32,000 nucleotides of DNA from contig JBBABY010000003.1 of assembly GCA_041657425.1 (NCBI GenBank), forward strand, positions 30,001 to 62,000. The letters run 5' to 3'. The notes beneath the pieces are model-generated. The model saw only the letters and a program-made list of their open reading frames with translations, did no database searches and had not been told where the DNA came from. Positions 1 through 14,983 of this stretch are shown here, piece after piece; positions within the stretch are counted from its first letter, which is position 1; each line of letters starts with the position of its first letter. The position numbers and the translations under genes are program-made. The DNA is from an archaeon. Its GTDB lineage: Archaea > Iainarchaeota > Iainarchaeia > Iainarchaeales > CSSED10-239.

Positions 1-159
1 TATGCCTCTACCAATGTAACACCTTATTATCTCACGTGGGGTTATTTAGCAGTTGGGATATTTTTAACAGTTAACGCAATTGTTGTTAAGTTTTTTCATT
101 TGCTGCAACCCCGAGATTGGTATGAAACGGAGATTACTATGATGAAAAAGAAAGTATAG
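1..159 (+). CDS. 3' end of a membrane-protein gene truncated by the window edge
   Basis: Frame 1 is open from nt 1 to TAG 157-159. The translation ...LTWGYLAVGIFLTVNAIVVKFF... contains one hydrophobic helix. There is no start in the window, so it is absent from the ORF track. Confidence 0.35.
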   Translation, partial: YASTNVTPYYLTWGYLAVGIFLTVNAIVVKFFHLLQPRDWYETEITMMKKKV

Positions 160-246
160 ACGAAACCCTTAAATAGAATACGCGTATATATACTAAACAT
201 AATCTTTTTAATTCGAGGTTGTATAATTGTCAAAACACAATACCTA

Positions 247-256
247 TTATTTAAAG
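247..256 (+). promoter_or_regulatory. TATA-like box TTATTTAAAG upstream of the 280 operon
   Basis: It lies 23 nt upstream of ATG 280. The identical decamer lies 22 nt upstream of ATG 9904. Confidence 0.35.
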
Positions 257-279
257 TTGTATAGTCACGGTGATTTCTA

Positions 280-1212
280 ATGAGTCACGGTCTGGAAAAT
301 CCATTAACCGTTAAGGCGAGAAATGCCAGACGGAATCGTTCTGCGCAACGTTCTGTGCAGGGTAATATTTATGAAAAAGAACATCCGGATCGTGCTGCCG
401 AATATCGTAGAAGATATAAAGCAAAGAAAGGATCTTTCGCGCAGCAACTTATAAATGCGCGCGCGCCGTTGGTGTTTACTGCTGGCGATATTTGTCTCGC
501 GTGCGATTTTCACATACCGTGCCACGATGAATCTCTTATTGATTATATGATTGGTGTTTGTAAAGATTTAAATATTAGGAAACTCGCAATCGACGGAGAC
601 TTCTTGGATTGTGATAACCTTAGTATTTTCACTAGTGTTACAGAGTCAAACCGAAGTGTGTCTATTACATGGAAGGCTGAAAAAGATGAAGGTCGAAAAA
701 TAATGACCCGCCTTCTTGAATGGTTTGAAGAAATTTATATTTGTTCTGGAAACCACGAGAATCGTATTATTGCACTTACTGGTGGGAAAGAAGGGTTTAA
801 AGATATAGTATTAGCGATGATGCCGAGAAACATTACCATATCTGATTATGAAAGACGTGTTCATTCTACTACAGATGATTTTATGATTTTGAATCACAAT
901 TGTGTGGATGAAAATGGAAATGATCGGATTCAAGAATGGATGCTTTGCCACCCGAAAAACTTTAGTATTTTGCCTTTGAGAGTAGCGCGCGCGTTGTGTG
1001 CAAAATTCGGAAAGAATATTCATATGGCGCATGGTCACAATTTATTGCAGGGGCGTGATATAAGTGGGAGATTTATATGTATAGAAGGTGGGGGATTGTT
1101 TGATAGAGAGGCGTTGGAATATACTTGTAAAACGACCACACACCCGGTAATGAGAAGTGGGTTTTTCATTTTGAAGAACGGAGAGGCGTTGAAATTTGAG
1201 GGGAGGTCGTGA
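280..1212 (+). CDS. calcineurin-like metallophosphoesterase
   Basis: 310-aa ORF with ordered motifs DFHIPCH (DxH), GDFLD (GDxxD), GNHENR (GNHE) and MAHGH (GH). Confidence 0.8.
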   Translation: MSHGLENPLTVKARNARRNRSAQRSVQGNIYEKEHPDRAAEYRRRYKAKKGSFAQQLINARAPLVFTAGDICLACDFHIPCHDESLIDYMIGVCKDLNIRKLAIDGDFLDCDNLSIFTSVTESNRSVSITWKAEKDEGRKIMTRLLEWFEEIYICSGNHENRIIALTGGKEGFKDIVLAMMPRNITISDYERRVHSTTDDFMILNHNCVDENGNDRIQEWMLCHPKNFSILPLRVARALCAKFGKNIHMAHGHNLLQGRDISGRFICIEGGGLFDREALEYTCKTTTHPVMRSGFFILKNGEALKFEGRS

Positions 1213-1386
1213 ATGAAAATCCCATTATTTATATTAATATTAATGCTGGTATGTATATTATCAATGGCAATCGCAGTATATTTGCGCCATCCATTTCTTA
1301 TGATTATTGCAATGCCAATTATGATGGTTGCTTCTATAATGATGCCGGATAAATATATGAACACGAATGTTTTTGTTGGTGCGTAG
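1213..1386 (+). CDS. small membrane protein (57 aa)
   Basis: The ATG directly follows TGA 1210-1212, with GGGAGG 7 nt upstream. The product MKIPLFILILMLVCILSMAIAVY... has two hydrophobic helices. TAG 1384-1386 abuts the next ATG. It is below the ORF-track size cutoff. Confidence 0.5.
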   Translation: MKIPLFILILMLVCILSMAIAVYLRHPFLMIIAMPIMMVASIMMPDKYMNTNVFVGA

Positions 1387-1760
1387 ATGAAAACCCTCTA
1401 CATCTCCGGCCCTTTCAGTCTCATACCCGACGGTTATGATGAACTCCACGGAACAGAAATCAATATTATTGAAGCGTCACGTTATGCGCTTGCTGCTGTC
1501 TATAAAGGGTGGGCACCATTCACACCGCATAAAAATACATCTGGGTTTCAACATGTTGTAGATATTGGTTATGATACGTGGATGAATATTTGTTTGGCAT
1601 TTGTGGAGAAATGTGATGCCATTCTTCTACTGCCCGGATGGGAAAAAGTCAAGGAGCGACGATGGAACGAGAATTGGCGATTGCATTAGGTAAGAAGATT
1701 CTTACTCCAAAAAATGTTGATGATATATCGAATGTAGAAGAAGTGTTTGATGAGGGGTAA
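1387..1760 (+). CDS. DUF4406 / nucleoside 2-deoxyribosyltransferase-like protein, interrupted by a -1 frame change at an A5 run
   Basis: The N-terminal part is YISGP...PHKN...CDAILLLPGWEK. The expected family C-terminus SQGATMERELAIALGKKILT continues in the -1 frame from A-run 1643-1647 to TAA 1758-1760. Confidence 0.6.
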
Positions 1761-1765
1761 ATAAT

Positions 1766-2179
1766 ATGAGCGACGACGACGACTCAATATTTATACTACG
1801 ATGCATAATGATAATGTTTGCAGTTATTATATTGTGTGTTTTGTTTAACCAATTTGTTTTTCACATCACGCCACCGCAGCCCGAACCAACATCTCAATTA
1901 ATTACAAAAAATATCGTTTTCACTAATAAAGAAGTTGTTGGTATATTTAATGGTTTTGGTTGTATGGGTGTAACAATGGAATTGTTTGATGAAAACGGTA
2001 ATGGTTATTATTATTTGTCGCAACCATTTAATATCAAAATTATAAATATTGGAGATAATTATACAATCCAATATTATTGCAACAAAAATGATGATAGGCA
2101 AATATACTCGTTTACAGATAATACACCACAATTATCAGATCGTGCTAAATGTGAACATATTAATGGAACTTGTCAATGA
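1766..2179 (+). CDS. membrane-anchored hypothetical protein
   Basis: 137-aa ORF with GAGGGG upstream, an N-terminal transmembrane helix (IMIMFAVIILCVLF) and a Cys/Asn-rich ectodomain. Confidence 0.6.
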   Translation: MSDDDDSIFILRCIMIMFAVIILCVLFNQFVFHITPPQPEPTSQLITKNIVFTNKEVVGIFNGFGCMGVTMELFDENGNGYYYLSQPFNIKIINIGDNYTIQYYCNKNDDRQIYSFTDNTPQLSDRAKCEHINGTCQ

Positions 2180-2361
2180 CCAAAGAATTTAACCCCACCA
2201 TCGCATTTATAATTTCTTTTTTTGATGGTTTACTCGCAGGTGGAATTGGTGGCTGTGTGGGTGCAATTGTGGGAAGTATTATTGCTAGTATGTTATTTGG
2301 GGCTTGTTTCGGATTGGTAATGCTTGTGTTAGATTTTAAATATTCTTTTGATGAAATTTAA
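2170..2361 (+). CDS. small Gly-rich transmembrane protein
   Basis: 63 aa. It overlaps the upstream stop. It contains LLAGGIGGCVGAIVGSIIASMLFGACFG and is a paralog of 2590..2766. Confidence 0.55.
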   Translation: MSMTKEFNPTIAFIISFFDGLLAGGIGGCVGAIVGSIIASMLFGACFGLVMLVLDFKYSFDEI

Positions 2362-2504
2362 TCGCGGTTTTCGCCTTTTACTTGACGACCCCAGATTTTG
2401 ATCCCACTATAATATTCTCCACGTTGCTTTTTACCAAGCGCGCCAACGTTGGGTTCTGGTCGATTGAATGTTCTAGAGAATTGATTTTTGATATCAAGAG
2501 ACAT
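2358..2504 (-). CDS. possible 48-aa basic ORF
   Basis: The ATG-to-TAA ORF MSLDIKNQFSRTFNRPEPNVGALGKKQRGEYYSGIKIWGRQVKGENRD fills the only gap in the plus operon. There is no clear RBS. Confidence 0.25.
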   Translation of the reverse strand: MSLDIKNQFSRTFNRPEPNVGALGKKQRGEYYSGIKIWGRQVKGENRD

Positions 2505-2589
2505 ATTTATAGTATTGGATGTTTGTGTATTTAAAGGTTTCTACTATACCAATACTTTTATATCCTTTAAACGCGTATATATTAACAAC

Positions 2590-2766
2590 ATGAAAGAAGA
2601 GTTGTTAGGAACGGGAATTTTAATTTCTTTATTATCTGCCGTTTTTGCAGGATGTCTTGGGGGAGTCACGGGCATTATTATTCATTCATTTATTGCTGGT
2701 ATCCTTTTAGCAATTACAGTCGGAACATTAATGTTATTTGTAGAGGGGTCTCCTATCTATGCCTGA
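2590..2766 (+). CDS. small Gly-rich transmembrane protein (paralog of 2170..2361)
   Basis: An internal ATG of ORF 2488..2766 gives MKEELLGTGILISLLSAVFAGCLGGVTGIIIHSFIAGILL. This matches the AG..GG..G.I..S.IA pattern of 2170..2361. Confidence 0.5.
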   Translation: MKEELLGTGILISLLSAVFAGCLGGVTGIIIHSFIAGILLAITVGTLMLFVEGSPIYA

Positions 2767-5700
2767 TCTCTGCTTAACTCAAGCCGAATACTCCTTCCAT
2801 AACAACTCTCCTGTCATTAACATCTTCGGTCGTGACTCCTCCGGTGTTTCTCATCGTGTGGATGTGGTTGGTTTCAAACCTTATTTTTTTGTTCCCGCAT
2901 CAGAATCCCCCAAAGCAACACCACCCTCCGAAGTTGATTCAAATGAATATTTTTCCATTCTCCATGAACCTTTGGTGAAAGTCATTACTCAAAAACCCGG
3001 TGACATTTTTGAATCGCGCGAGAAGTTTTCTAAACACTATGAAGCGGATATTTTATACACATTGAGGTTTCTGATTGATACAAAAATAAAATCTGGTTTC
3101 TCTTATACACAATCACCATGCACGATTGACGACATATTATTCAAAGATTTAAACTATCCCGCGCGCGTTTGTATTGTGGATATTGAATGTTCTGATGAAC
3201 GCGGGTTCCCGGATGCAACGAAAGATCCAATTTTTTGCATTACTTGTCATGATAGTTTTACAAATCGTTATATTACATTTGTTGTCGCTACTTCACCTCT
3301 TATAGAAACACCTAAAGAGAACGGGTGCTTTGATCCCGCTCACCACGACGTTATAACATACACGGATGAAAAATCTCTTCTTGTGGATTTTTGTGAATAT
3401 ATCAAATCCACAGATCCGGATATTATTACGGGGTGGAACTGCGTTCCAGAAGATACAATGGTTGACACAAAAAACGGTCTTATACCAATTAAGGCATTAA
3501 TACCGGGTATTGTTTTAAACACAGGTGGAAAAGTTGTATCCGTTTATAATACGGGGGTTAAGAATACAACTCGTATAAGAACATCTATTGGATGGGATTT
3601 TATTGTTGGGGAAGATCATCGAATGTTAGTTTCTCAAATTCCACAAGATCGTCATTATGTGTGGGAACATTGCGAAAACTATGAACCAACATACGAAATT
3701 TCTAAAAATATAACTTCTGATAGTATATTGCATATTCCAATACGGCAGTATGAAAATAATATTGGTCTCGGGCTTGATCCTTTTAATTGTTACAGGGCTG
3801 GACTTATTTATTCCGATGGCGCCAGACCAGATAAGTGGAGATTTAGATTTTACAATAAAAATATAAACCTCATTAATAGATGTTGCGGGGAAAACCATAG
3901 ATGGTTTACAAAAGGTGTCTGGTGTTCTAATATATTGCAGCGAGATCTAAAAGGGGCAGAACATCTCATTCTGGTTGGTGATAAGAAACAACTCAATTTT
4001 GGTTTATTATCTCGTCTATCTGTAGAAGAGTTCGGGGCTTTTTTAGCTGGATGGTATGATGGCGATGGGTATTCAGATGTCTTTTGTATAGGAGATCATA
4101 CTATTAATATTCGGCATTTTCAGTTATTTGCAGGATTTGGTGCGATAACTTCATCTACATGTAATATAAATTTACGGATCTTATGTATAACCCAAAAACT
4201 ATTAGAGTGTATGAAAAAGTTTTTGCAGAAGAAAATAAAAAATAAAATCCATATAATTAAGAGAAAACGAGTTACTAGGAAAGATCATTTCAGATTTAAT
4301 TTTAATAGAAATCTAACTAATATGTATCTGCGGGTAAAAAATGTAAGTAACGACGTGCCTAAAAATTGCTACGATATTGAAACGACAGAACATAATTTTT
4401 CGATTGGTTGCGTTGTACATAATTGTAATGAATTTGATATACCTTACATTCTGGGTCGTATGGATGTATTAGGTATCCCGCGCGATGCGTGGTCGCGGTT
4501 GCCTAGTGGAAACACCGGGCGCATAGAAATCAAAGGTCGTCAACTTTTTGATTTATTATCCGGGTATAAAAGAATGCATTTGGGTGAACAACCTTCTTAT
4601 CGCCTTGATGCAATAGCATTAGAAGAATTGGGGAAACAAAAAATCCATCACAATGGAAAGGTTTTCGATTTATGGAAAGAAGATCCTACCAATCTGGTTT
4701 ACTATAACTTCACTGATGTGGAATTATGTGTAGGTATTAATGCAAAAGACGAAACTGTTGAATTCCACAGGTATGTTGCTCATTATGCCGGGTGTCCTCT
4801 GGAAAAGACAACAAATAGTATGCCTATTATTGATATGTTGGTTTTGAGAGAAGCAAAAGAAAATGGGTTTATTTTACCTTCAAAGGCAAATTCTATAAAT
4901 ACACAAGAATCGTTTGAAGGGGCTACGGTTATTGCTCCCATGCGCGGAGTGCAAGAAAACGTTGCTGTTTTGGATGCTAAATCATTGTATCCAATGTCGA
5001 TGATGACTATTAATGCATCTCCAGAAACCAAAGATCCAAAAGGAGAACTGCGCGCTCCTAATGGTGTCAGATTTAAAAAAGAACCCGATGGATTGGTTAG
5101 AAAGATTCAGGCGAAATTTTTACGTGAACGAGATGAGATGAAAAAGGAACGGAATAAGTATCCTTTTGATTCTCGTGAGTATAAACTTTTAAATATGAAA
5201 CAGGACGTGGTTAAGGTTTGCATGAATTCTTATTATGGGGTTTCGGCAAATCCGATGTTCCGTCTTAATGACCGTGACGTGGGTTCGGCTATTACATCAG
5301 TAGGGCGCGCGCTTTTGGAGCACAACAAAAAACTTGTAGAACACGAAGAATATAAAATTGTTTTTGGTGATACCGATTCGGTTGGTATAAAGATACCAAA
5401 AAGTATTGGGAAAGAAGGAACTATGTTTATTGCGAAGGAACTTGAAACGCTTCTTAATAACTCATATCCACAGTTTGCAAAAGAAACATTAAATGCCGAT
5501 GTTCAATATTTCTCCGTGAAATTTGAAAAATTATACCAGAGATTTTTTAGCGGCGGGAAGAAGAAGCGATACGCTGGACTCCTTATTTGGAAGGAAGGTG
5601 TAGACGCGCATAAAATTGATATTGTGGGTTTTGAAACCAAGCGGTCGGATTCCCCCAAGGTCACACGTGACGCAATGAAAACACTTATCGAGATGGTTCT

Positions 5701-6130
5701 TGAGGGCAAACCTTATGAAGAAATCAGAACTACTATTTCGGATGTTATACGTAAATACCGCGCGGGTAAATATAGTCTCGACGATGTAGGAATTCCCGGC
5801 GGCATTGGTAAACCATTGGAAGAATATGATATCCAAGATGCGCAGGTGCGCGCGGCGGTGTATTCTAACACTTATCTGGGAACGAATTTTGGTAAGGGGT
5901 CAAAACCGAAACGTTTATATATTAAGAATGTTACTTCAAAATATCCGCGCACGGATGTAGTTTGTTTTGAGTATGCGGATCAAATAGATAGAAACATTTT
6001 TATAGTTGATGTTGATACAATGTTAGAGAAGACTTTAAAGACTCCGTTATCACGGATTATGGAACCGTTGAATTTCAACTGGTGCGAGTTTGACCCGGCG
6101 ACTCCGACGTTGGGGAAGTGGGGTTTTTAG
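2759..6130 (+). CDS. polB: family B DNA polymerase (archaeo-eukaryotic type) containing one intein
   Basis: Exo I VDIECSD. Exo II GWN/(intein)/CNEFDIPYIL. Exo III YNFTDVEL. Motif A LDAKSLYPMSMM. Motif B KVCMNSYYG. Motif C FGDTDSV. KKRYAG is also present. The extein is 795 aa. Confidence 0.95.
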   Translation: MPDLCLTQAEYSFHNNSPVINIFGRDSSGVSHRVDVVGFKPYFFVPASESPKATPPSEVDSNEYFSILHEPLVKVITQKPGDIFESREKFSKHYEADILYTLRFLIDTKIKSGFSYTQSPCTIDDILFKDLNYPARVCIVDIECSDERGFPDATKDPIFCITCHDSFTNRYITFVVATSPLIETPKENGCFDPAHHDVITYTDEKSLLVDFCEYIKSTDPDIITGWNCVPEDTMVDTKNGLIPIKALIPGIVLNTGGKVVSVYNTGVKNTTRIRTSIGWDFIVGEDHRMLVSQIPQDRHYVWEHCENYEPTYEISKNITSDSILHIPIRQYENNIGLGLDPFNCYRAGLIYSDGARPDKWRFRFYNKNINLINRCCGENHRWFTKGVWCSNILQRDLKGAEHLILVGDKKQLNFGLLSRLSVEEFGAFLAGWYDGDGYSDVFCIGDHTINIRHFQLFAGFGAITSSTCNINLRILCITQKLLECMKKFLQKKIKNKIHIIKRKRVTRKDHFRFNFNRNLTNMYLRVKNVSNDVPKNCYDIETTEHNFSIGCVVHNCNEFDIPYILGRMDVLGIPRDAWSRLPSGNTGRIEIKGRQLFDLLSGYKRMHLGEQPSYRLDAIALEELGKQKIHHNGKVFDLWKEDPTNLVYYNFTDVELCVGINAKDETVEFHRYVAHYAGCPLEKTTNSMPIIDMLVLREAKENGFILPSKANSINTQESFEGATVIAPMRGVQENVAVLDAKSLYPMSMMTINASPETKDPKGELRAPNGVRFKKEPDGLVRKIQAKFLRERDEMKKERNKYPFDSREYKLLNMKQDVVKVCMNSYYGVSANPMFRLNDRDVGSAITSVGRALLEHNKKLVEHEEYKIVFGDTDSVGIKIPKSIGKEGTMFIAKELETLLNNSYPQFAKETLNADVQYFSVKFEKLYQRFFSGGKKKRYAGLLIWKEGVDAHKIDIVGFETKRSDSPKVTRDAMKTLIEMVLEGKPYEEIRTTISDVIRKYRAGKYSLDDVGIPGGIGKPLEEYDIQDAQVRAAVYSNTYLGTNFGKGSKPKRLYIKNVTSKYPRTDVVCFEYADQIDRNIFIVDVDTMLEKTLKTPLSRIMEPLNFNWCEFDPATPTLGKWGF
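3440..4423 (+). mobile_element. 328-aa intein with LAGLIDADG homing endonuclease domain inside polB
   Basis: It starts CVPEDTMV, has block B GEDH, and ends CVVHN followed by the +1 Cys (CNEFD). Two LAGLIDADG motifs are present: RAGLIYSDGA and FLAGWYDGDGY. It interrupts the ITGWN....FDIPY Exo II motif. Confidence 0.85.
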
Positions 6131-6228
6131 AAAGGTTTAAATATTAAAACTATTGGTGGTATATAAATTAGTTGTATAGTAAATTTTTATAGTATATAAA
6201 GTTAACCTATATATTTCCGAACCAACAT

Positions 6229-6236
6229 TTTAAATA
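6229..6236 (+). promoter_or_regulatory. TATA box TTTAAATA upstream of the tRNA array
   Basis: It lies 24 nt upstream of the tRNA-Leu 5' end at 6261. A second TTTAAATA at 6354..6361 follows this tRNA. Confidence 0.4.
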
Positions 6237-6260
6237 GAAACAACACCTATATTCTATGAC

Positions 6261-6342
6261 TGGTGGATACCCGAGCGGTCAAAGGGGCCGGATTCAAAAT
6301 CCGGTGTTTAGTGCTTCGAGGGTTCAAATCCCTCTCCACCAA
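6261..6342 (+). tRNA. tRNA-Leu(CAA), class II
   Basis: Acceptor tggtgga/tccacca. D stem ccc/ggg. Anticodon stem ccgga/tccgg with loop ttCAAaa. 13-nt variable arm. T arm gaggg-ttcaaat-ccctc. No encoded CCA. Confidence 0.85.
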
Positions 6343-6494
6343 TTGTAGAAATATTTAAATACTATTACAACATACACTATTATATATCATGACAGTAAAT
6401 ATAAACGTATCAACATCTATTCTATCATTGCGTTTACTGTCCAGTTTGACGCTTCTCACCACATCGTGAGGGTGTTTTGTATTGGTTTCATCTT

Positions 6495-6582
6495 GCTGCC
6501 TTGGGCGAGTCTGGTTTATGCCGCAATTCTGCTAAAGTTGCTTTCCTGATCGGAAACGAAAGTTCAAATCTTTCAGGCAGCG
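6495..6582 (+). tRNA. tRNA-Ser(GCU), class II
   Basis: Acceptor gctgcct/aggcagc. D stem ggc/gcc. Anticodon stem caatt/agttg with loop ctGCTaa. 17-nt variable arm with ttcc/ggaa stem. T arm gaaag-ttcaaat-ctttc. Confidence 0.85.
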
Positions 6583-6584
6583 TC

Positions 6585-6660
6585 GCCGGATAAGCATCTG
6601 TTGGTTTGGTGCATTCGATCTGTAATCGAAAGGGCGGGAGTTCAATTCTCTCATCCGGCT
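6585..6660 (+). tRNA. tRNA-Thr(UGU), class I, C at position 33
   Basis: Acceptor gccggat/atccggc. D stem gcat/gtgc. Anticodon stem ttcga/tcgaa with loop tcTGTaa. T arm gggag-ttcaatt-ctctc. Positions 8-9 are AA. Confidence 0.7.
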
Positions 6661-6669
6661 CATATTATT

Positions 6670-6754
6670 GCCAACGTGGGGAGTGCGGTGCGCTAAACGG
6701 TCCTGAAAACCGTCGCCCTTAACAGGGTTGCAGGTTCAATTCCTGTCGTTGGCG
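6670..6754 (+). tRNA. tRNA-Ser(UGA)-like, class II, irregular D arm, C33
   Basis: Acceptor gccaacg/cgttggc. Anticodon stem acggt/accgt with loop ccTGAaa. Long variable arm. T arm gcagg-ttcaatt-cctgt. I could not fold the D arm canonically. Confidence 0.6.
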
Positions 6755-6803
6755 TCCTCTTACATAGGGGAAAGTATAAATGATTTGAAAACATATAAGT
6801 TAT

Positions 6804-6887
6804 GTGTGAATGGGACAGCACGGTTGACTCCACTGGATCGAGGTTCCAGACAAGGAAACGACGCAAGTTCAAATCTTGCTTCACACA
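6804..6887 (+). tRNA. tRNA-Leu(GAG), class II, C33
   Basis: Acceptor gtgtgaa/ttcacac. D stem gga/tcc. Anticodon stem ctgga/tccag with loop tcGAGgt. 13-nt variable arm. T arm gcaag-ttcaaat-cttgc. Confidence 0.75.
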
Positions 6888-6889
6888 TC

Positions 6890-6974
6890 GCGTCCGTGGC
6901 GAAACGGTTGAACGCAACAGTCTTAAACACTGTGACGAAGCGAAACATTTCAGGTTCAAATCCTGACGGACGCA
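6890..6974 (+). tRNA. tRNA-Leu(UAA), class II
   Basis: Acceptor gcgtccg/cggacgc. D stem gcg/cgc. Anticodon stem acagt/actgt with loop ctTAAac. 16-nt variable arm. T arm tcagg-ttcaaat-cctga. Confidence 0.85.
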
Positions 6975-6993
6975 TCCCATTGTGGGAAATCGA

Positions 6994-7075
6994 GAGTGAT
7001 TGGAACAGAAGCCGACTTCACCGGATTTAGACTCCGTACAAGGAAACATCGCCGGCGCGCATCCGGCATCACTCA
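6994..7075 (+). tRNA. tRNA-Leu(UAG)-like with degenerate T and D loops (possible pseudo-tRNA)
   Basis: Acceptor gagtgat/atcactc. D stem gaa/ttc. Anticodon loop ttTAGac on a stem with one C-U mismatch. The variable arm resembles that of Leu(GAG). T stem gccgg/ccggc, but the loop is cgcgcat (no TTC). The D loop lacks GG. Confidence 0.5.
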
Positions 7076-7078
7076 TTT

Positions 7079-7158
7079 GGGTCTGTGTATCCAGAACGGC
7101 TATGGAACCGTCTCAAACACGGTCTATGTGTAAGCCGGTTCAACTCCGGCCAGACCTA
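7079..7158 (+). tRNA. tRNA-like gene with anticodon CAA (Leu), irregular geometry
   Basis: Acceptor gggtctg/cagacct (G1-U72). Anticodon stem accgt/acggt with loop ctCAAac. T arm gccgg-ttcaact-ccggc. There are 4 nt between the acceptor and D stem (tcca/tgga). The variable region is 10 nt. Confidence 0.55.
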
Positions 7159-8146: not shown

Positions 8147-9019
8147 TTACTTCTTTTTAAAATATTCTTTTGGTAATATTTGCAACCCATATTTTTGGTG
8201 ATGATTCATATGGGATTCTTTGAACATTGTTATACCATTATCTATATCCCACAATTCTTCACACTTTAATGAATCTTCTATTGTTTTAATATTATATTTT
8301 TGTATTATTATTGATAACGGTTTAATATGGTGTACTTCTAAATTGTGGTTCCCTATAATACCAGTAAAACAATCGCAGAAGTTATCACGTTTCATGACAT
8401 TATATCTCCATATATACATTTCCGGAAGTGCTCTTATTGCTTTTTCTAATGTTGATATACCACCCTTCCAATTATGATTATGTTCACCACTCATATTTTT
8501 TCTTGCTTCCATTGATTTGGGTTTATTTTTAAGTGCTTTACTAATTTTTTCTCCGGTTCCATTAGGCATACTCTGTCCTTTATTCCACGCTTCTTGTCCT
8601 GCGTGAGCAATACTCATAAGATTTCGTGTGTGTTGTGAAGCGGTTTTCCCTAGATGTGCAAGTCTGTTCTTTTCTGTAGATTCTGAAGTTATATGTGGGA
8701 TTTGACCCTTGTGTGATTCTGACAAATGTTGTTTGTGCGATTCTGTTAAGGGAATATTTTTCTTTTTTGCACTCATTTTATCTTTTGCAGATTGAGTATG
8801 CGGGATACCAAGATTCCAAGGAATGCGCCCTTTCATAGATTTGCTTAAATTTTCACAATGCTCCTTTGTAAATGGTTTCTTCGGTTTATTTTTCTGCGAT
8901 TTACTCATTTTATCCCGCGATGATTGTGAAGGATGCTTATCAGTATGTGCTTCACGATTCTTTCTTATCCATTCATTATATTTTGCGGGGTCTTTTGGTG
9001 GCGGCATTTGTTTTTTCAC
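8147..9019 (-). CDS. HNH homing endonuclease with N-terminal NUMOD3-like repeats
   Basis: The C-terminus has HNLEVHHIKP...NGITMFKESHMNHH (HNH). Upstream are at least 4 repeats of the type S.E.K.K.S.S.KG (NUMOD3-like). Confidence 0.85.
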   Translation of the reverse strand: MKKQMPPPKDPAKYNEWIRKNREAHTDKHPSQSSRDKMSKSQKNKPKKPFTKEHCENLSKSMKGRIPWNLGIPHTQSAKDKMSAKKKNIPLTESHKQHLSESHKGQIPHITSESTEKNRLAHLGKTASQHTRNLMSIAHAGQEAWNKGQSMPNGTGEKISKALKNKPKSMEARKNMSGEHNHNWKGGISTLEKAIRALPEMYIWRYNVMKRDNFCDCFTGIIGNHNLEVHHIKPLSIIIQKYNIKTIEDSLKCEELWDIDNGITMFKESHMNHHQKYGLQILPKEYFKKK

Positions 9020-9450
9020 ACTTTAAATTTTGTAGCCACTGCTCCATATCCACATTGGTTGCATTTTGCAGCAGGGGTGTATTTTCCATCAATACTCTTT
9101 TTAGTTCCATTCTTTTTTATATTATTAGAACCACACTTTGGGCATTTCATATCTACCGAAACATGTTCTGTATGTTTCCCAAACATCGGGTTATTTTCTC
9201 CCATTTTAGATTTACTTATATTTTCGCAATGTTCTTTAGTTCGTAGAGGTTTTGGTTTATTTTTTAAAGCGGCACTAATTTTTTTACCAGTTTCATTAGG
9301 CATTTTCTCTCCTTTATTCCACGGTTCTATACCTTTATGCGATTCGCTCATTTTAACGAGAGTGTCTTTTTCTGGATGTTTATTCATATGAGAATTTCTT
9401 TGTCTCTCCAACCAAAGCGCGTGTTTTATAGGGTCTTTTGGTGCTACCAT
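9016..9450 (-). CDS. NUMOD3-repeat protein with C-terminal zinc ribbon (paralog of the N-terminus of 8147..9019)
   Basis: APKDPIKHALWLERQRNSHMNKHPEK parallels PPKDPAKYNEWIRKNREAHTDKHPSQ. It has a CPKCG...CNQCG ribbon and no HNH motif. It makes an ATGA overlap with the next gene. Confidence 0.7.
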   Translation of the reverse strand: MVAPKDPIKHALWLERQRNSHMNKHPEKDTLVKMSESHKGIEPWNKGEKMPNETGKKISAALKNKPKPLRTKEHCENISKSKMGENNPMFGKHTEHVSVDMKCPKCGSNNIKKNGTKKSIDGKYTPAAKCNQCGYGAVATKFKV

Positions 9451-9903: not shown

Positions 9904-10197
9904 ATGTCATTCAATTATGTTGTATATAAATTAACCTTCCCAAACGGAAAAATATATGTTGGTATTGATACCCAAAAAGATGGGCATCATATTAACTACT
10001 TTGGTTCGTGGTCTAATGAACTTGTAGAAAAAGATTTTACTGATGAACAACTTTGCGACTTTACAATAAGAAAAGAAATACTTTTTGAATCTACTGATAA
10101 GGAAGAAGTGAGAAGAAAAGAAGGCAAATACATTCGAGAGTTGCATTCAAACGAAACGGAAATTGGTTATAATCAAACTTGTAAAAAGAGGAAATAA
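9904..10197 (+). CDS. stand-alone GIY-YIG nuclease domain protein (97 aa)
   Basis: YVVYKLTFPNGKIYVGID (GIY-(x10)-YIG), then RRKEGKYIRELH (conserved R/E) and GYNQT. It is a lone plus-strand gene between minus-strand units. Confidence 0.7.
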   Translation: MSFNYVVYKLTFPNGKIYVGIDTQKDGHHINYFGSWSNELVEKDFTDEQLCDFTIRKEILFESTDKEEVRRKEGKYIRELHSNETEIGYNQTCKKRK

Positions 10198-11551: not shown

Positions 11552-11773
11552 TTAAACCCCCTCTAAAAACCTCTCATAATCACTCTTCGAAAACCCATCC
11601 GTGATATTAATGTGCTCCCATTTGACATTCAATCCATAGAGACCACCTATTTTGTAGTATGAAGTAACGATGCCATAGTCACCGATATTAATATCAGCGA
11701 ATGGCGCGAGTGCCTTGACGTGATGATTGATTTTTGTTTTTGCTTCGGGTAGGGTGAAGTAGGTTTTGGACAT
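11552..11773 (-). CDS. hypothetical protein
   Basis: 73-aa ORF. Its start overlaps the upstream stop by 1 nt. Confidence 0.55.
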   Translation of the reverse strand: MSKTYFTLPEAKTKINHHVKALAPFADINIGDYGIVTSYYKIGGLYGLNVKWEHINITDGFSKSDYERFLEGV

Positions 11774-12009
11774 TAAGATTCCTCATCATAAGGTGTATTA
11801 TTTAATTCAAGATATCTTGTAATTATTTCGTCGGATTGACTCAATCGTCCAAAATAATGATGCCGGCCTTTATAAATATAACCTTCGTCTCCGCTATAAT
11901 TGTGTTGATCGATCATTGTTTCAAACAATTTCTTATCGGGTATTTCATCTTTGTCAACTACGAAAGATGATGAAGAACTATTACTAACGAAACCAAATCT
12001 AATTTTCAT
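11773..12009 (-). CDS. SNSSSSSF-motif paralog 4 (78 aa)
   Basis: It starts MKIRFGFVSNSSSSSFVV at an internal ATG that overlaps the stop of paralog 3 (TAATG). Confidence 0.7.
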   Translation of the reverse strand: MKIRFGFVSNSSSSSFVVDKDEIPDKKLFETMIDQHNYSGDEGYIYKGRHHYFGRLSQSDEIITRYLELNNTPYDEES

Positions 12010-12344
12010 TATCCATTCCTCCACGATGCTTCCAATGTTTCTACCGCGTGCGGTTTAATTTTGAAATTATTGCAAATAATATCACATCCGGTTTGCGCGC
12101 GCTGTAGGAATTGTCGCCTTGTTTCATCCATTTCGATCTTGTCGTAACTTATACCGATATAATAACCACAATCATCGAATGGGCAATGCTTTTCAAAATC
12201 TTTGAGTTCTGCGTGTTTCTTTTGCATATGTTCAAGCCAATCATAATCATCTTCAAATTCTTTCGGGATTTCACCAATAATGATCCCTGCAATAAGGAAT
12301 GAAGACGATGAACTGTTACTCACAAATCCAAGTCGTGTTTTCAT
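12009..12344 (-). CDS. SNSSSSSF-motif paralog 3 (111 aa)
   Basis: It starts MKTRLGFVSNSSSSSFLIAG and directly abuts paralog 2. Confidence 0.75.
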   Translation of the reverse strand: MKTRLGFVSNSSSSSFLIAGIIIGEIPKEFEDDYDWLEHMQKKHAELKDFEKHCPFDDCGYYIGISYDKIEMDETRRQFLQRAQTGCDIICNNFKIKPHAVETLEASWRNG

Positions 12345-12614
12345 TCAATCATCCCATTTTACTATATTATCATCAATACCAATCATGGATAAAAATTCTC
12401 TCATGTCGAAGTTATCCATGCTGGTAAATCCATATACAAAGAGTTCATCTTCGTGTATATTCCACACATCATATTTATCACAGCCGCTTCTTTTGAAATA
12501 TAAATTGGTTTCGTGATTTTTAATAGCATCGATTTGCAATTCATTCAAAAATTGTTTACTTATAATGAATGAACTGCTACTCGAATTTGAGATGAAACCG
12601 TGTCGTGTTTTCAT
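12345..12614 (-). CDS. SNSSSSSF-motif paralog 2 (89 aa)
   Basis: The internal ATG of ORF 12345..12686 gives MKTRHGFISNSSSSSFIIS. It begins 8 nt after the stop of paralog 1. Confidence 0.7.
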   Translation of the reverse strand: MKTRHGFISNSSSSSFIISKQFLNELQIDAIKNHETNLYFKRSGCDKYDVWNIHEDELFVYGFTSMDNFDMREFLSMIGIDDNIVKWDD

Positions 12615-12622
12615 GATACACC

Positions 12623-13198
12623 TCAATGATTTGAAATTATAATACAAGGAATCATCTTCCAATGATCCCCGTGTTCCATTTGACACATGAAATCCCCATC
12701 GTTATCCGAATATGATATATCATAGAGAATAAACCTTTCATCCATTTCACGAACGAGAGATTGCACCATCAGAGTGTTCCACGTTCTACCGGCAGATTTC
12801 ATTTTCTTTATAACTTTTTCGCGCTCATCGGGTTCAAAATTATATCCGTGGTTGTGCGGGTCGCAACAAGTATCTACAAATTTATATGTAAACATTGATG
12901 TATCTGGTTGTGTTCCGCCCTTCGTGTAAGAAACGAGATATTTTTCTACCTTATTCAACTCACATAGCTCTTTAAGATGAACATCATCCCATACACGCTT
13001 AAGACATTCACGGTATGTATAGGGATAGTTGGGTTCTGTGATATTAAGATCGATTTTTGTTTCGTCGCGTGTAAAGAGTCCTTCCCAATTAAATAATCCC
13101 TTTTCGCACCATTCTTCGAATGTTTTGCATTCGGGATCGATGCCTACGATGAATGAGCTGCTTGACGAGTTTGAAACAAACCCACTTCTAGTCTTCAT
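12623..13198 (-). CDS. SNSSSSSF-motif paralog 1 (191 aa)
   Basis: It starts MKTRSGFVSNSSSSSFIVG. It makes an ATGA overlap with the stop of the radical SAM C-fragment. Confidence 0.75.
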   Translation of the reverse strand: MKTRSGFVSNSSSSSFIVGIDPECKTFEEWCEKGLFNWEGLFTRDETKIDLNITEPNYPYTYRECLKRVWDDVHLKELCELNKVEKYLVSYTKGGTQPDTSMFTYKFVDTCCDPHNHGYNFEPDEREKVIKKMKSAGRTWNTLMVQSLVREMDERFILYDISYSDNDGDFMCQMEHGDHWKMIPCIIISNH

Positions 13199-14004
13199 GA
13201 TTTTTTACCTCCAAATTCAAGATTAAATAATGGGCAATTTCTACACCCGTTTTTATCTTTGTTCCCGATAACCGATGATCGGAAACGGTTAAATTGTTCA
13301 TTGTTCCATACATCTGTAGTAAAGTCGTTGATATTAAGCATATCGATTCCGGTGTATCCACATTCGTTTTCGCTAAACGAGCATGGATATGCTTTTCCTT
13401 CAACATTAATATACATGCTGAATAACGTAGATTCACACGGTTCAATGCTTTCTACGTGTTCGGGCATAAGAGCCATCACTTTTGGTGCGCTGCACGAGTC
13501 AAACCCAAATCTCACGTTGTTGGATTTTAATACGTTCATAAGTTCTTTGTAATGTGCTTCAGAAACCGAGTGTAGGCTGTTTCTATCACCTTTTGGTTTC
13601 AACCACAGGAATACTACAGCGTTAAGATAACGGGCGAGCAATGGGTCATTGCGAGCCTTGTGCACGATGTTCATACACTTATCAAATGTCTCTTCTGATA
13701 AGAGGCAGTGGATGTTGACCTGTGATAATCCACGATTGCCAAGTTCGGTGATTGCAGTGCGGCATGTTTCGTAATCATACAGGGAAACGGCAACAGCGCC
13801 ACATAGAGAAGACAATTTTTCATAATCTGTAGGGGTCATACGGGAACCGTTGATCGTGATGTTTGGAATAACACCATTGTTCCGACAATGTTGCATAATG
13901 GAATATAGATCCGGATTAGTAAGTATATATTCTTTTTTATATTCGTATATATTTTGTTCTTTCATGTATTCATTTTCACCAATAATTTCCCATTCCCCAT
14001 TCAT
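13195..14004 (-). CDS. radical SAM enzyme, C-terminal fragment with SPASM/twitch-type auxiliary-cluster domain
   Basis: It has a TIM-barrel continuation (NPDLYSIM...ITINGS). CESTLFSMYINVEGKAYPC fits CX9-15GX4C, and CRNC follows. It lacks the CxxxCxxC motif, which lies in 14639..14983. Confidence 0.85.
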   Translation of the reverse strand: MNGEWEIIGENEYMKEQNIYEYKKEYILTNPDLYSIMQHCRNNGVIPNITINGSRMTPTDYEKLSSLCGAVAVSLYDYETCRTAITELGNRGLSQVNIHCLLSEETFDKCMNIVHKARNDPLLARYLNAVVFLWLKPKGDRNSLHSVSEAHYKELMNVLKSNNVRFGFDSCSAPKVMALMPEHVESIEPCESTLFSMYINVEGKAYPCSFSENECGYTGIDMLNINDFTTDVWNNEQFNRFRSSVIGNKDKNGCRNCPLFNLEFGGKKS

Positions 14005-14642
14005 AATTTTTTCCTCCTATTAATACACGGTGGTCTCATAACAACATGTCTTTTCTTTAAAACATTATTTACTTTTTTCTTGCCAATATTTAGAACCTTT
14101 GCAATTTTAAAAATACCATATATTTTATATAAATTTACTATTTCATCTTCCAATTCACTCGTCAAATGAATGGAATTGGCATTACTTATTTCCATTTTTG
14201 TTTTTTCCGAATGTGTTTTTCCGAAAAATGAATTTTTTTCTCCAACTCTTTTTTTACCGCAGTTGGATATTATTTGTTTCTGTGAATCTGGTAAATGTTT
14301 ACCATACATATGATTTTTATCGCCCTTGTGACTTTCCCCCATTTTTAATCTTGTTGTTTCTGATGGGAAAACACCAAGTTTTCCAGACCCACCCAATGCT
14401 ATATTATATCCAACATTTAAATTTGTAGAATTAAAATGTGTAATCCAGTATTGTTCTTTTTCATTTAATTCTTCTTGTGTTTTACAATATTCCAAAATCT
14501 CCTTTTTAAAATTATGTTTACCGTATTTTCCCACAGCGTTTTTTATTAAAATGCCCGAACCCAAATATAGTGGTCTGTTTTTGGTGTCTTGACCAATATA
14601 TATTTTATTATTAATCAAATTTGTTATTTTATAAATAATCAT
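14001..14642 (-). CDS. GIY-YIG homing endonuclease (I-TevI/Seg-like) with NUMOD3 repeats and C-terminal HTH
   Basis: IIYKITNLINNKIYIGQD...YWI...GYNI (GIY-YIG). Repeats SETTRLKMGESHKG and HSEKTKMEIS. The C-terminus is IFKIAKVLNIGKKKVNNVL. ATGA overlaps occur at both ends. Confidence 0.9.
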   Translation of the reverse strand: MIIYKITNLINNKIYIGQDTKNRPLYLGSGILIKNAVGKYGKHNFKKEILEYCKTQEELNEKEQYWITHFNSTNLNVGYNIALGGSGKLGVFPSETTRLKMGESHKGDKNHMYGKHLPDSQKQIISNCGKKRVGEKNSFFGKTHSEKTKMEISNANSIHLTSELEDEIVNLYKIYGIFKIAKVLNIGKKKVNNVLKKRHVVMRPPCINRRKKL

Positions 14643-14983
14643 TTCCTTCTCCTAAAGTATACAATGTTATTTATTGATCCTATTCCAAATGCCACCTGCG
14701 TAATTGTGTTAGGTAATTTGGAGAACACTGTTTTAAACGTCTTCAAATCCATGTAAGTTCCATCACACGTATTTGACTTATAGCAGAATTTGCATCCGTG
14801 GTTACAGATTGTTGAAATTTCAATATCTGCGATTTCGGGTGAAGGCGCGCATTCGGGGTCGTCATCAAATGTTGCGCCCCACCGTGAAAATGCGCCGTTG
14901 ATTTTATTGAAGATGAAATTGTAATTCGGAGAGATCGCTGATTTTGTTGTTGATGTGTCGATTACTTGCATATTACTCACCAT
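14639..14983 (-). CDS. radical SAM enzyme, N-terminal fragment with the CxxxCxxC cluster motif
   Basis: DIEISTICNHGCKFCY is present. It ends shortly after QVAFGIG, where the GGE-type SAM motif region is expected. Confidence 0.85.
   Translation of the reverse strand: MVSNMQVIDTSTTKSAISPNYNFIFNKINGAFSRWGATFDDDPECAPSPEIADIEISTICNHGCKFCYKSNTCDGTYMDLKTFKTVFSKLPNTITQVAFGIGSINNIVYFRRRK

Follow-up and report, generated by a model that had tools for sequence, protein, structure and literature searches.

We analysed a window of 32,000 nucleotides from contig JBBABY010000003.1 (GCA_041657425.1; positions 30,001 to 62,000) and found in it a minus-strand phage operon, in which a gene for a radical SAM enzyme, split in two, is followed by four translationally coupled genes for small proteins (Table 1). 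All four proteins begin with MK[TI]RxGF[VI]SNSSSSSF and are unrelated after that. The preliminary description had reported these four genes, their common N-terminus and their divergence beyond it, and this observation is confirmed.

Table 1. Features of the radical SAM operon; positions are those of the window.
Feature	Coordinates	Strand	Length (aa)	Content	Supporting data
Radical SAM enzyme, N-terminal fragment	14639..14983	-	114	NYNFxFNxxxGxFSRWG lead-in (conserved) and CX3CX2C SAM-cluster site (CNHGCKFC); ends just after AFGIGSI	Pfam Radical_SAM; phrog_7293 positions 18-115; aligns to residues 1-~100 of the intact 342-aa ortholog in locus L007
GIY-YIG/NUMOD3 homing endonuclease, free-standing, inserted in the radical SAM gene	14001..14642	-	213	Overlaps both halves of the enzyme gene by ATGA	Pfam GIY-YIG 1.6e-6, NUMOD3 3.5e-13; phrog_314 7.6e-40
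Radical SAM enzyme, C-terminal fragment	13195..14004	-	269	28 extra N-terminal residues, then resumes at NPDLY; SPASM/twitch-type auxiliary-cluster cysteines (GFDSC, EPCES, YPCSF, GCRNCP)	Pfam SPASM 4.4e-8; phrog_7293 positions 121-362, E = 7.5e-55; alignment with the family
Tagged protein A	12623..13198	-	191	MKTRSGFVSNSSSSSF plus a body with conserved ISYSDNDG, MEHG and terminal NH motifs	AlphaFold model poor (pLDDT 49.6)
Tagged protein B	12345..12614	-	89	MKTRHGFISNSSSSSF plus a compact beta-alpha-beta-beta-alpha-beta domain (predicted) with a conserved MDNFDM motif	3,484 sub-family members; AlphaFold pLDDT 81.3
Tagged protein C	12009..12344	-	111	MKTRLGFVSNSSSSSF plus an unrelated acidic body	Separate BLAST cluster of 37 members
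Tagged protein D	11773..12009	-	78	MKIRFGFVSNSSSSSF plus an unrelated body	Its BLAST cluster holds two L007/L004-type orthologs

The junctions between the genes are tight. The stop of the C-terminal enzyme fragment overlaps the start of the gene for protein A (ATGA), the genes for A and B are separated by an 8-nt spacer containing GAGGTG, those for B and C abut (TGAATG), and C overlaps D, and D the next gene, by TAATG. No intron RNA was found by Rfam, and the orthologs of the enzyme in the related loci L007, L003 and L004 are uninterrupted. The CX12GX4C and CX2C (CRNC) cysteines pointed out in the preliminary description are present. However, across the enzyme family the second Cys of CX2C is not conserved, and only four Cys outside the SAM-cluster site are invariant.

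We next asked whether the shared N-terminus could have arisen by chance or as a DNA repeat. A degenerate DNA pattern for GF[VI]SNSSSSSF matched 4 times in the window and 0 times in 100 dinucleotide-preserving shuffles. The serines use both TCN and AGY codons at the same positions in different copies, and therefore selection acts on the peptide and not on a DNA repeat. Beyond about residue 20, the four proteins fall into separate BLAST clusters. In all four of them, a Glu follows within 7-10 residues of the tag.

The tag defines at least 23,050 clusters at 50% identity, and in about 140 of the top 150 independently called proteins it starts at residue 1. In a set of 366 distinct proteins, R4, G6, S9, N10, S11 and S12 are 100% conserved and position 1 is a start codon in about 99%. 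Hydrophobic residues at positions 17-18 are also conserved. The bodies form 131 BLAST clusters and range from 20 to 305 aa. Profile-profile comparison found no relationship among 13 of the 14 larger body clusters, the exception being one remotely related pair (HHalign probability 65%), although several clusters share C-terminal endings such as GxGR[DN]G, or D/N at position -2. In the bodies, Pfam finds only one STAND-unrelated domain, a STAS-like DUF4325, plus weak zinc-ribbon hits. The "tandem paralogs" of the preliminary description are better described as unrelated small domains that share a portable N-terminal tag.

The AlphaFold model of protein B leaves residues 1-11, which include half of the Ser run, unstructured and below pLDDT 50, although they are the most conserved part. 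This pattern is typical of a motif that contacts a partner. Residues 14-19 form the first strand of the domain in this model as well as in the poor model of protein A, and the tag is therefore not a fully detachable leader. Structure searches with protein B returned no structural neighbours and no match to any nucleotide- or metal-binding loop.

We then examined the linkage of the tag genes with the enzyme and observed the following. Of 80 viral loci picked only for the enzyme, 72 carry 1-13 tag genes within 10 kb on either side, and 293 of 293 of these genes are on the enzyme's strand. A second, differently ranked sample gave 53 of 71 loci, with 217 of 217 genes on the enzyme's strand (510 of 510 over the two samples). 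Eight of the 18 negatives in this sample are RB16/KP15-type genomes, where the tag genes lie about 20 kb away; tag genes need not, therefore, be adjacent to the enzyme. Among motif-centred loci, 44 of 44 local radical SAM genes are on the same strand as the tag genes, and most are directly upstream. At least 63 of 108 motif-bearing contigs also carry the enzyme. About 40% showed none in the parts examined, so a tag that works without the enzyme cannot be excluded. No other gene family recurs around the pair.

The pairing is very widespread in large phages, and we found no description of it in the libraries or literature searched. Among cultured phages, RB16, RB43, KP15 and Vibrio phage D479 have both parts. 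The two tag proteins of RB16 occur in 175 and 174 records of cultured phages and the radical SAM enzyme in 173, with nearly the same taxon breakdown. In RB16, the tag genes and the enzyme lie among minus-strand, early-type gene blocks alongside replication genes, and not among the plus-strand virion genes.

A sister form, a minimal pair of tag gene and enzyme, lies inside bacterial anti-phage (Avs-like) operons with overlapping ORFs. The gene order is a STAND NTPase (Avs2-like, 5e-29), p136, the tagged protein and the radical SAM enzyme. In addition to phages, the pair occurs in bacterial chromosomal and plasmid operons that have no virion genes. This connection with defence systems had been missed in the preliminary description. 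The bacterial enzyme gave weak viperin-like (pVip-like) PADLOC hits (2e-11), and radical SAM enzymes next to STAND proteins could instead act on nucleotides.

The tag was also observed to change with the type of enzyme. Enzymes with a full CX2CX5CX3C pair with Thr9 tags in 21 of 27 cases, while reduced-SPASM enzymes pair with Ser9 tags in 131 of 132 (Fisher p = 7e-20; not corrected for phylogeny, the comparison separating essentially two clades). Only positions 9 and 14 of the tag differ between the two groups. The nearest curated relatives of the enzyme are peptide/protein maturases, MftC (1e-26) followed by WgkB, PqqE, GeoRSP and ScmE, all of them below their cut-offs. The enzyme has no recognisable RiPP recognition element.

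The aforementioned data led us to propose, as a reading only somewhat more likely than not, that this is a two-component, phage-encoded protein-tagging system. In this view, the enzyme, a radical SAM protein with one SAM cluster and a SPASM/twitch-type auxiliary cluster, binds the exposed, unstructured tag of each co-expressed protein and uses a 5'-deoxyadenosyl radical to modify a side chain in the F7-V8-S9-N10-S11-S12 core. Ser9 or its neighbours would be the most likely site, because positions 9 and 14 are the only tag positions that change with the SPASM type. All tagged proteins would thereby gain one common chemical feature that they need in order to act. From the context, and in particular from the bacterial operons headed by an Avs2-like STAND NTPase, the tagged proteins are probably early-expressed factors in phage-host conflict. 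The genomic coupling, the operon structure, the N-terminal constraint, the peptide-level selection, the exposure of the tag in the model and the enzyme-tag co-variation rest directly on our analyses, while binding, modification, the modified site and the biological role are inferred, and the activity of the enzyme, which is made here as two polypeptides, is an assumption. The interpretation given in the preliminary description is therefore partly supported. Its core claim of a functional coupling between the radical SAM/SPASM gene and the tag-bearing genes is strongly supported by comparative genomics, whereas its suggestion that the Ser run is the recognition or modification site remains an inference.

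A possible but less likely alternative is that the tag is a docking handle and not a substrate. Each tagged protein would use its N-terminus to bind the enzyme and act as an exchangeable specificity or regulatory subunit, and the real substrate would be something else, such as a host or phage protein, a nucleic acid or a nucleotide. This model explains the same linkage, strand bias, exposed tag and co-variation, and there are many different bodies per enzyme, up to 13. It also has a parallel in the published KpAvs2 operon, where the small accessory protein Avap2 binds the STAND protein and the radical SAM protein Avap1 is needed only against some phages (PMC11564622), and the viperin-like PADLOC hits are in line with it. 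However, a pure docking strand would not need five consecutive serines conserved at nearly 100%, with Ser-to-Thr as almost the only tolerated change, and the closest curated enzyme families modify peptides. The Avap1 model is also reported to have no pocket for an NTP (PMC11564622), which would bear on the present enzyme only by analogy.

It is unlikely that the tag is a signal unrelated to radical SAM chemistry, either for packaging, like the capsid-targeting sequence of T4 internal proteins, or for self-association of all tagged proteins, with the enzyme a neighbour for other reasons. The layout does resemble T4 internal-protein loci, which have tandem genes, an identical short N-terminus and divergent bodies, and the Glu following the tag and the motif contigs without a visible enzyme could be taken in its favour. 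Against it are the bacterial operons without virion genes, the 90% of enzyme-centred loci that carry the tag, always on the same strand, the co-variation and the early-type gene context in RB16. The alternative raised in the preliminary description, that the motif is the first strand plus active-site loop of one tandemly amplified fold, taken here more widely as a serine-rich active-site or ligand-binding loop of a single fast-diverged enzyme or binding fold, is mostly contradicted and very unlikely, because, in spite of strand 1, the conserved residues 17-18, the shared C-terminal endings and the one remotely related pair of clusters, the bodies are otherwise not homologous by profile comparison, and include zinc ribbons, a STAS-like domain and all-acidic proteins, and the confident model of protein B leaves residues 1-11 outside the fold, with no match to a nucleotide- or metal-binding loop.

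We compared the operon with known systems. The split of the enzyme gene, though not the tag system, is like that of T4 gene 39/60 with mobA and Aeh1 nrdA with mobE, where an essential enzyme gene is cut into two separately translated ORFs by an inserted free-standing endonuclease gene, with no intron RNA and tight ORF overlaps. The anaerobic sulfatase-maturating enzyme (anSME) is a radical SAM-SPASM enzyme that modifies a Ser (or Cys) side chain within a short motif of a full-length protein rather than in a peptide natural product. Its target, (C/S)-x-(P/A)-x-R inside sulfatases, does not occur here, nor does a sulfatase fold; the window fragments gave no anSME family hit in NCBIfam at E <= 1, and no solved-structure match was better than E = 0.07.

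In RiPP maturase systems with one promiscuous enzyme (prochlorosins/ProcM; the SPASM maturases MftC, PqqE, AlbA and StrB), one enzyme serves, as is proposed here, several co-encoded substrates with a conserved recognition segment and hypervariable remainders, and some precursor genes are scattered in the genome. Here, the variable parts are folded proteins of 60-290 aa and not short core peptides, the conserved segment of 16 residues is at the very N-terminus and runs directly into the fold, and no RRE/PqqD-like domain, leader protease or transporter is present. All hits to these families fall below the curated cut-offs.

The KpAvs2 operon (Bechon et al. 2024, PMC11564622) has an Avs2-type STAND NTPase together with a radical SAM protein (Avap1) and a small accessory protein (Avap2; DUF6375 by HHpred) in one operon, an arrangement like that of the bacterial sister form. 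Its authors state that the radical SAM protein is not viperin-like and leave the roles of both accessory proteins unexplained. KpAvs2 has an Mrr nuclease N-terminus, whereas the STAND proteins here have a SMEK_N domain, and neither the tagged protein nor p136 matches PF19902 with hmmscan. The window itself is a phage cassette with no STAND gene.

The FxSxx-COOH/FxsB system was defined bioinformatically (Haft & Basu 2011) and placed in VMAP-ternary conflict systems (Kaur et al. 2020, PMC7159879); we found no biochemical characterization of either that system or the present one. There, the motif is at the extreme C-terminus and is released by a zincin metallopeptidase, while here it is at the extreme N-terminus, contains a run of serines, and no peptidase recurs. 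That system is actinobacterial and the present one is mainly in phages, and the window fragments gave no FxsB hit at E <= 1. In both, small, rapidly diverging proteins keep only a short terminal motif that contains F-x-S (F7-V8-S9-N10-S11 of the tag fits FxSxx), a dedicated radical SAM-SPASM enzyme is encoded alongside, and a STAND-type (AP-ATPase) NTPase is associated in a biological-conflict context.

We first re-examined the minus-strand array of tagged genes in the window. Four consecutive ORFs begin with MK[TI]RxGF[VI]SNSSSSSF (see the table below), and hence the observation made in the preliminary description is confirmed. A degenerate DNA pattern for the core of this motif matched four times in the window and never in 100 shuffles. 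At equivalent positions the serines switch between TCN and AGY codons, which requires two base changes. Therefore, the conservation is on the peptide, and a DNA-level repeat as its cause was rejected. After about residue 20 the four proteins are unrelated. From the enzyme gene to the gene after the last paralog, every junction is an ATGA or TAATG overlap, an abutment, or an 8-nt spacer with a GAGGTG ribosome-binding site, which makes this one translationally coupled operon. A scan for promoters and terminators gave nothing above chance.

Coordinates of the features in the window and in the related loci
Locus	Position	Strand	Length	Feature
Window	2759-6130	+	1,123 aa	Family B DNA polymerase
Window	6261-7158	+		Seven tRNA genes: Leu(CAA) twice, Leu(GAG), Leu(UAA), Ser(GCU), Ser(UGA), Thr(UGU)
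Window	8147-9019	-		Protein full of NUMOD3-like repeats, ending in an HNH motif
Window	9016-9450	-		Adjacent protein full of NUMOD3-like repeats
Window	9904-10197	+	97 aa	Stand-alone GIY-YIG domain
Window	11773-12009	-	78 aa	Tagged ORF
Window	12009-12344	-	111 aa	Tagged ORF
Window	12345-12614	-	89 aa	Tagged ORF
Window	12623-13198	-	191 aa	Tagged ORF
Window	13195-14004	-		Radical SAM enzyme, fragment with the SPASM-type domain
Window	14001-14642	-		GIY-YIG/NUMOD3 endonuclease
Window	14639-14983	-	114 aa	Radical SAM enzyme, N-terminal fragment with the CX3CX2C site
L271 (bacterial operon)	152-3384			Conserved STAND-tag-radical SAM operon
L371 (Agrobacterium pAt)	2565-7017			Conserved STAND-tag-radical SAM operon
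L371 (Agrobacterium pAt)	5583-5978			Variant tag (K4, D6)
L200 (enzyme-centred locus)	12022-12483			Variant tag (Y6)

Next, we analyzed the enzyme gene. The two fragments map to consecutive parts of phrog_7293. When aligned with an intact 342-aa ortholog, the break falls exactly at ...AFGIG-x-I | NPDLY..., and nothing is lost. The intervening endonuclease ORF overlaps both halves by ATGA, Rfam gave no intron hit at E <= 1, and intact orthologs of 342-344 aa exist in the contig L007 and in other contigs. The gene is therefore split by a free-standing homing endonuclease, and a group I intron as the cause was rejected. Genes of this family were repeatedly found in two or three pieces in different phage contigs (L014, L066 and L115, in addition to the window at 13195-14983), which suggests that they are frequent targets of homing-endonuclease insertion. 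The region around the cassette is itself dense in homing-endonuclease genes.

The N-terminal fragment belongs to the radical SAM superfamily (PF04055), whose CX3CX2C site, or a close variant of it, binds the SAM-cleaving [4Fe-4S] cluster near the start of a partial TIM barrel. This site is present as CNHGCKFC. The Pfam Radical_SAM hit of the 114-aa fragment is weak (E = 0.0019; 18.8 bits against a cut-off of 29.5), but the intact relatives reach 1e-12, and all three Cys are conserved or invariant in an alignment of 32 family members. The SPASM/twitch auxiliary-cluster domain (PF13186/TIGR04085) is a C-terminal Cys-rich domain, and a full SPASM has CX9-15GX4C ... CX2CX5CX3C ... C, with seven Cys and two clusters. 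The C-terminal fragment scores above the Pfam SPASM cut-off (4.4e-8) and contains CX12GX4C. However, the window-type enzymes lack CX5CX3C, and only four Cys outside the SAM site are invariant in the 32-sequence alignment (GFDSC, EPCES, FPCSF and RxCP). This is enough for one auxiliary cluster, although cluster numbers are judged here from sequence alone. The second Cys of the CX2C pointed out in the preliminary description is not conserved. The bacterial sister clade, on the other hand, has the full CX2CX5CX3C.

The nearest curated relatives of the enzyme are peptide/protein maturases (MftC, WgkB, PqqE, GeoRSP and ScmE), all below their cut-offs. The best hit was to MftC, with 93.8 bits against a cut-off of 265, and came from a bacterial homolog; the window fragments scored at most about 24 bits for any NCBIfam family. 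The neighboring genes included no MftA, PqqA or similar substrate gene. Thus the enzyme did not fall into any of the characterized SPASM maturase families tested (MftC, PqqE, WgkB, sactisynthases, KxxxW cyclase, FxsB and anSME). A sequence search of PDB with the intact enzyme gave nothing better than E = 0.07. The locus also does not have the features of a RiPP biosynthetic cluster, which are a short precursor with leader and core, an RRE or other leader-binding domain, and a protease and/or exporter. The would-be precursors are proteins of 78-305 aa with folded bodies, no PqqD/RRE domain was found in the enzyme, and no protease or transporter recurred among the neighbors.

To find how widespread the tag is, we scanned viral contigs with a nucleotide pattern and obtained at least 118 stretches with 250 tag ORFs, often in arrays. 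The pattern allowed Thr, Cys, Arg or Trp at the Ser positions, yet positions 11, 12 and 15 were about 100% Ser. An exhaustive profile search of 1.84 billion representatives found 23,050 clusters at 50% identity with E <= 0.001, and the motif starts at residue 1 in about 140 of the top 150. A search with a 44-aa profile returned only short fragments. One sub-family, the 89-aa type of the window, alone has 3,484 members. With a relaxed pattern applied to loci chosen for the enzyme, R4, G6, S9, N10, S11 and S12 are 100% conserved in 366 distinct proteins, and position 1 is ATG in 94% and GTG or TTG in 5%. Variants missed by our strict pattern also exist, namely MKLKMDFVSNSSSTSF (K4, D6) in L371 and MKSRNYFVSNSSSSSF (Y6) in L200. 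The invariant core is FVSNSSS[ST]SF, and all the counts reported here are therefore lower bounds. The family has no model in Pfam, NCBIfam or PADLOC, and in PHROGs it is phrog_7397, of unknown function, which makes it a large blind spot. The two tRNA-Ser genes in the tRNA block of the window cover both the serine codon families (AGY and UCN) used in the tags, but this may be coincidence.

We then asked whether the tag is linked to the enzyme. Among the motif-centred loci, for which only short stretches were retrieved, 49 of 122 contain the enzyme. It is the only recurrent non-tag neighbor (44 loci, against at most 8 for the next family), and it is on the same strand as the tag genes in 44 of 44 cases, usually directly upstream. 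The enzyme-centred loci are more telling, as they were chosen without reference to the motif. Of these, 72 of 80 have 1-13 tag genes within +-10 kb, and 293 of 293 tag genes are on the strand of the enzyme. One of the apparent negatives, L200, in fact carries the variant tag. A second sample, ranked from the other end of the family, gave 53 of 71 loci and 217 of 217 genes; eight of its 18 negatives are RB16/KP15-type genomes. At the contig level, at least 63 of 108 motif contigs carry the enzyme. No third gene family recurred around the pair.

A megablast search of cultured phages with the cassette gave no match, nor did tblastn with the 191-aa protein, where the low-complexity filter masks the tag. 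A whole-genome motif scan, however, showed that in RB16 the enzyme (RB16p156) and two tag proteins (RB16p106 and RB16p111) lie about 20 kb apart. These three genes have nearly the same distribution across records (173, 174 and 175). Vibrio phage D479 has a tag gene 1.4 kb upstream of its enzyme. RB16, RB43 and KP15 are cultured coliphages and Klebsiella phages that carry one enzyme and two tagged proteins each, which makes the system directly testable. The RB16-type pair of 155-aa and 170-aa tag genes, 3.9 kb apart, was also found on the 178,077-bp contig L217 (NZ_JBHSCL010000010.1, 'Flagellimonas marina CGMCC 1.15774'), which has the size of an RB16-type genome and is probably a T4-like coliphage contaminant in that bacterial assembly.

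The proteins of the window itself (P0001 and P0320) are named 'MAG: Candidatus Paceibacterota bacterium' at NCBI (139-kb contig). The content is, however, phage-like, with a family B DNA polymerase, several homing endonucleases, a tRNA block and relatives found only in phage contigs. It is probably a phage contig mis-binned into a CPR genome. Many other 'MAG' hits look the same (Nanoarchaeota, Omnitrophota and Patescibacteria contigs of 60-250 kb with 3-8 tag genes). The PHROG polymerase profiles among the hits align to the polymerase ORF only from about residue 554 onward, and its long N-terminal half could be a divergent exonuclease domain, a fusion or an insertion.

Next, we examined the bodies of the tagged proteins. 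They form 131 BLAST clusters, 90 of them singletons, and profile-profile comparison related only one pair among the 14 largest clusters. Pfam searches of 135 body representatives were essentially empty, with one STAS-like domain and a few weak zinc-ribbon matches. Several unrelated body clusters (e.g. in the loci L036, L051, L017, L015 and L029) end in similar short motifs (GxGR[DN]G, GTRSC, W[GR][DN][GD], ...NH), with D or N over-represented at position -2 and G or H at position -1. This hints at a second, weaker shared feature at the C-terminus. An AlphaFold model of the 89-aa protein from a 120-sequence alignment (pLDDT 81.3, pTM 0.70) predicts a beta-alpha-beta-beta-alpha-beta domain whose first strand is residues 14-19. 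Residues 1-11 fall below pLDDT 50, although they are the most conserved part. Foldseek searches of PDB and BFVD with this model returned only generic alpha/beta sandwiches (best E about 0.02-0.1). The model of the 191-aa protein, built from 11 sequences, was too poor to use (pLDDT 49.6), but it showed the same split, with residues 1-13 unconfident and a strand at 14-20. A segment that is highly conserved yet lacks intramolecular contacts is what a partner-binding linear motif looks like. This argues against the alternative offered in the preliminary description, that the motif is the first strand plus active-site loop of one amplified fold.

The tag was also found to co-vary with the enzyme. 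Enzymes with a complete CX2CX5CX3C SPASM ending pair with Thr9 tags in 21 of 27 cases, whereas reduced-SPASM enzymes, the type of the window, pair with Ser9 tags in 131 of 132 cases (Fisher p = 7e-20, not corrected for phylogeny). Only positions 9 and 14 differ between the two sets. Rare tag variants also cluster within genomes, across non-homologous bodies.

The full-SPASM type occurs in bacterial replicons as a tight operon with overlapping ORFs, in the order (MBL-fold LmuA/Avs1a-like protein), SMEK_N-STAND NTPase (Avs2-like), 136-aa protein, Thr9-tagged protein of about 137 aa, radical SAM and (313-aa protein with an M1E1E6-like domain). It was found in Veillonella parvula, Acetatifactor muris, Lachnobacterium bovis, Sulfuricurvum, Verrucomicrobia, Acidobacteriota and Agrobacterium pAt, that is, in at least four phyla and on this plasmid (loci L271, L208, L224, L236, L241, L249, L262, L263 and L371), with the STAND operon present in at least 15 loci. 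The STAND protein matches PADLOC Avs2 at 4.8e-29 and its N-terminus matches SMEK_N at 3e-42, while the MBL protein matches LmuA at 2.4e-61. This looks like an undescribed multi-gene Avs-like defence system. No STAND gene lies in the window or in the phage-type loci; the defining feature of an Avs (antiviral STAND) system, a STAND NTPase of Avs type in the same operon, is present only in the bacterial sister form.

Five lines of evidence point the same way: the two-component linkage, the exposed tag in the model, the near-absolute conservation of serine side chains, the co-variation and the translational coupling. While these are direct outcomes of our analyses, binding of the tag, its modification and the biological role are inferred. 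Taken together, we consider it somewhat more likely than not that the enzyme binds and modifies the N-terminal tag of each co-encoded protein. The proposal in the preliminary description, that the Ser-run N-terminus is the recognition or modification site of a virus-encoded protein-modification system, is thus partly supported. Candidate chemistries are oxidation of Ser, an F-x-S type cross-link, and epimerization. The role is inferred only from context, namely the gene blocks of early type, the hypervariable arrays and the defence-operon sister form.

Among the other explanations, the one that survives best, though doubtful, is that the tag is a docking handle that makes the proteins exchangeable subunits of an enzyme with another substrate. 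A targeting or assembly signal is unlikely. In T4-type internal proteins a conserved N-terminal capsid-targeting sequence of ~10 aa is followed by an (L/I)-x-E prohead-protease site, with late expression and presence in virions. The tag sequence is unrelated to the T4 sequence MKTYQEFIAE, an (L/I)-x-E site follows the tag in 2 of the 4 window proteins, and the pair also occurs in non-viral bacterial operons. That the tag is the conserved core of one diverged fold is very unlikely.

If the enzyme modifies the tag, this would be a new radical SAM reaction acting on whole proteins through a portable 16-residue N-terminal tag, and would give a single handle on the function of a very large group of phage 'ORFan' early proteins. 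A more far-reaching possibility is not excluded by the data, but is less likely than not. In this view, the enzyme would install a previously unknown radical-mediated modification, such as a cross-link or oxidation within F-V-S-N-S-S, on a tag shared by tens of thousands of otherwise unrelated phage proteins, as a general 'tag-and-modify' post-translational system of large phages. The same module would also be the unexplained accessory pair of Avs2-type bacterial immune operons, and phage and host would then use one chemical mark on opposite sides of the conflict.

Literature searches for the motif string, for RB16/RB43/KP15 with radical SAM, and for viral RiPPs found no description of the pairing. 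Two published systems resemble the bacterial operon. One is the FxSxx-COOH/FxsB radical SAM-SPASM peptide system, which is linked to STAND ATPases in conflict systems (PMC7159879). The other is the KpAvs2 operon, whose radical SAM accessory protein Avap1 is needed against some phages and whose small accessory protein Avap2 binds the STAND protein, both roles being stated there to be unknown (PMC11564622). hmmscan linked neither the tagged protein nor the 136-aa protein to DUF6375, and the possible relation to the KpAvs2-Avap1-Avap2 operon is therefore a lead and not a result. The sister form in STAND/Avs-like operons ties the system to bacterial innate immunity. Radical SAM-SPASM enzymes paired with motif-bearing targets are already known; what appears to be undescribed, within the libraries and literature searched, is the N-terminal Ser-run tag on full-length, unrelated proteins, its scale in phages, the reduced-SPASM phage enzyme clade and the link to Avs-like operons.
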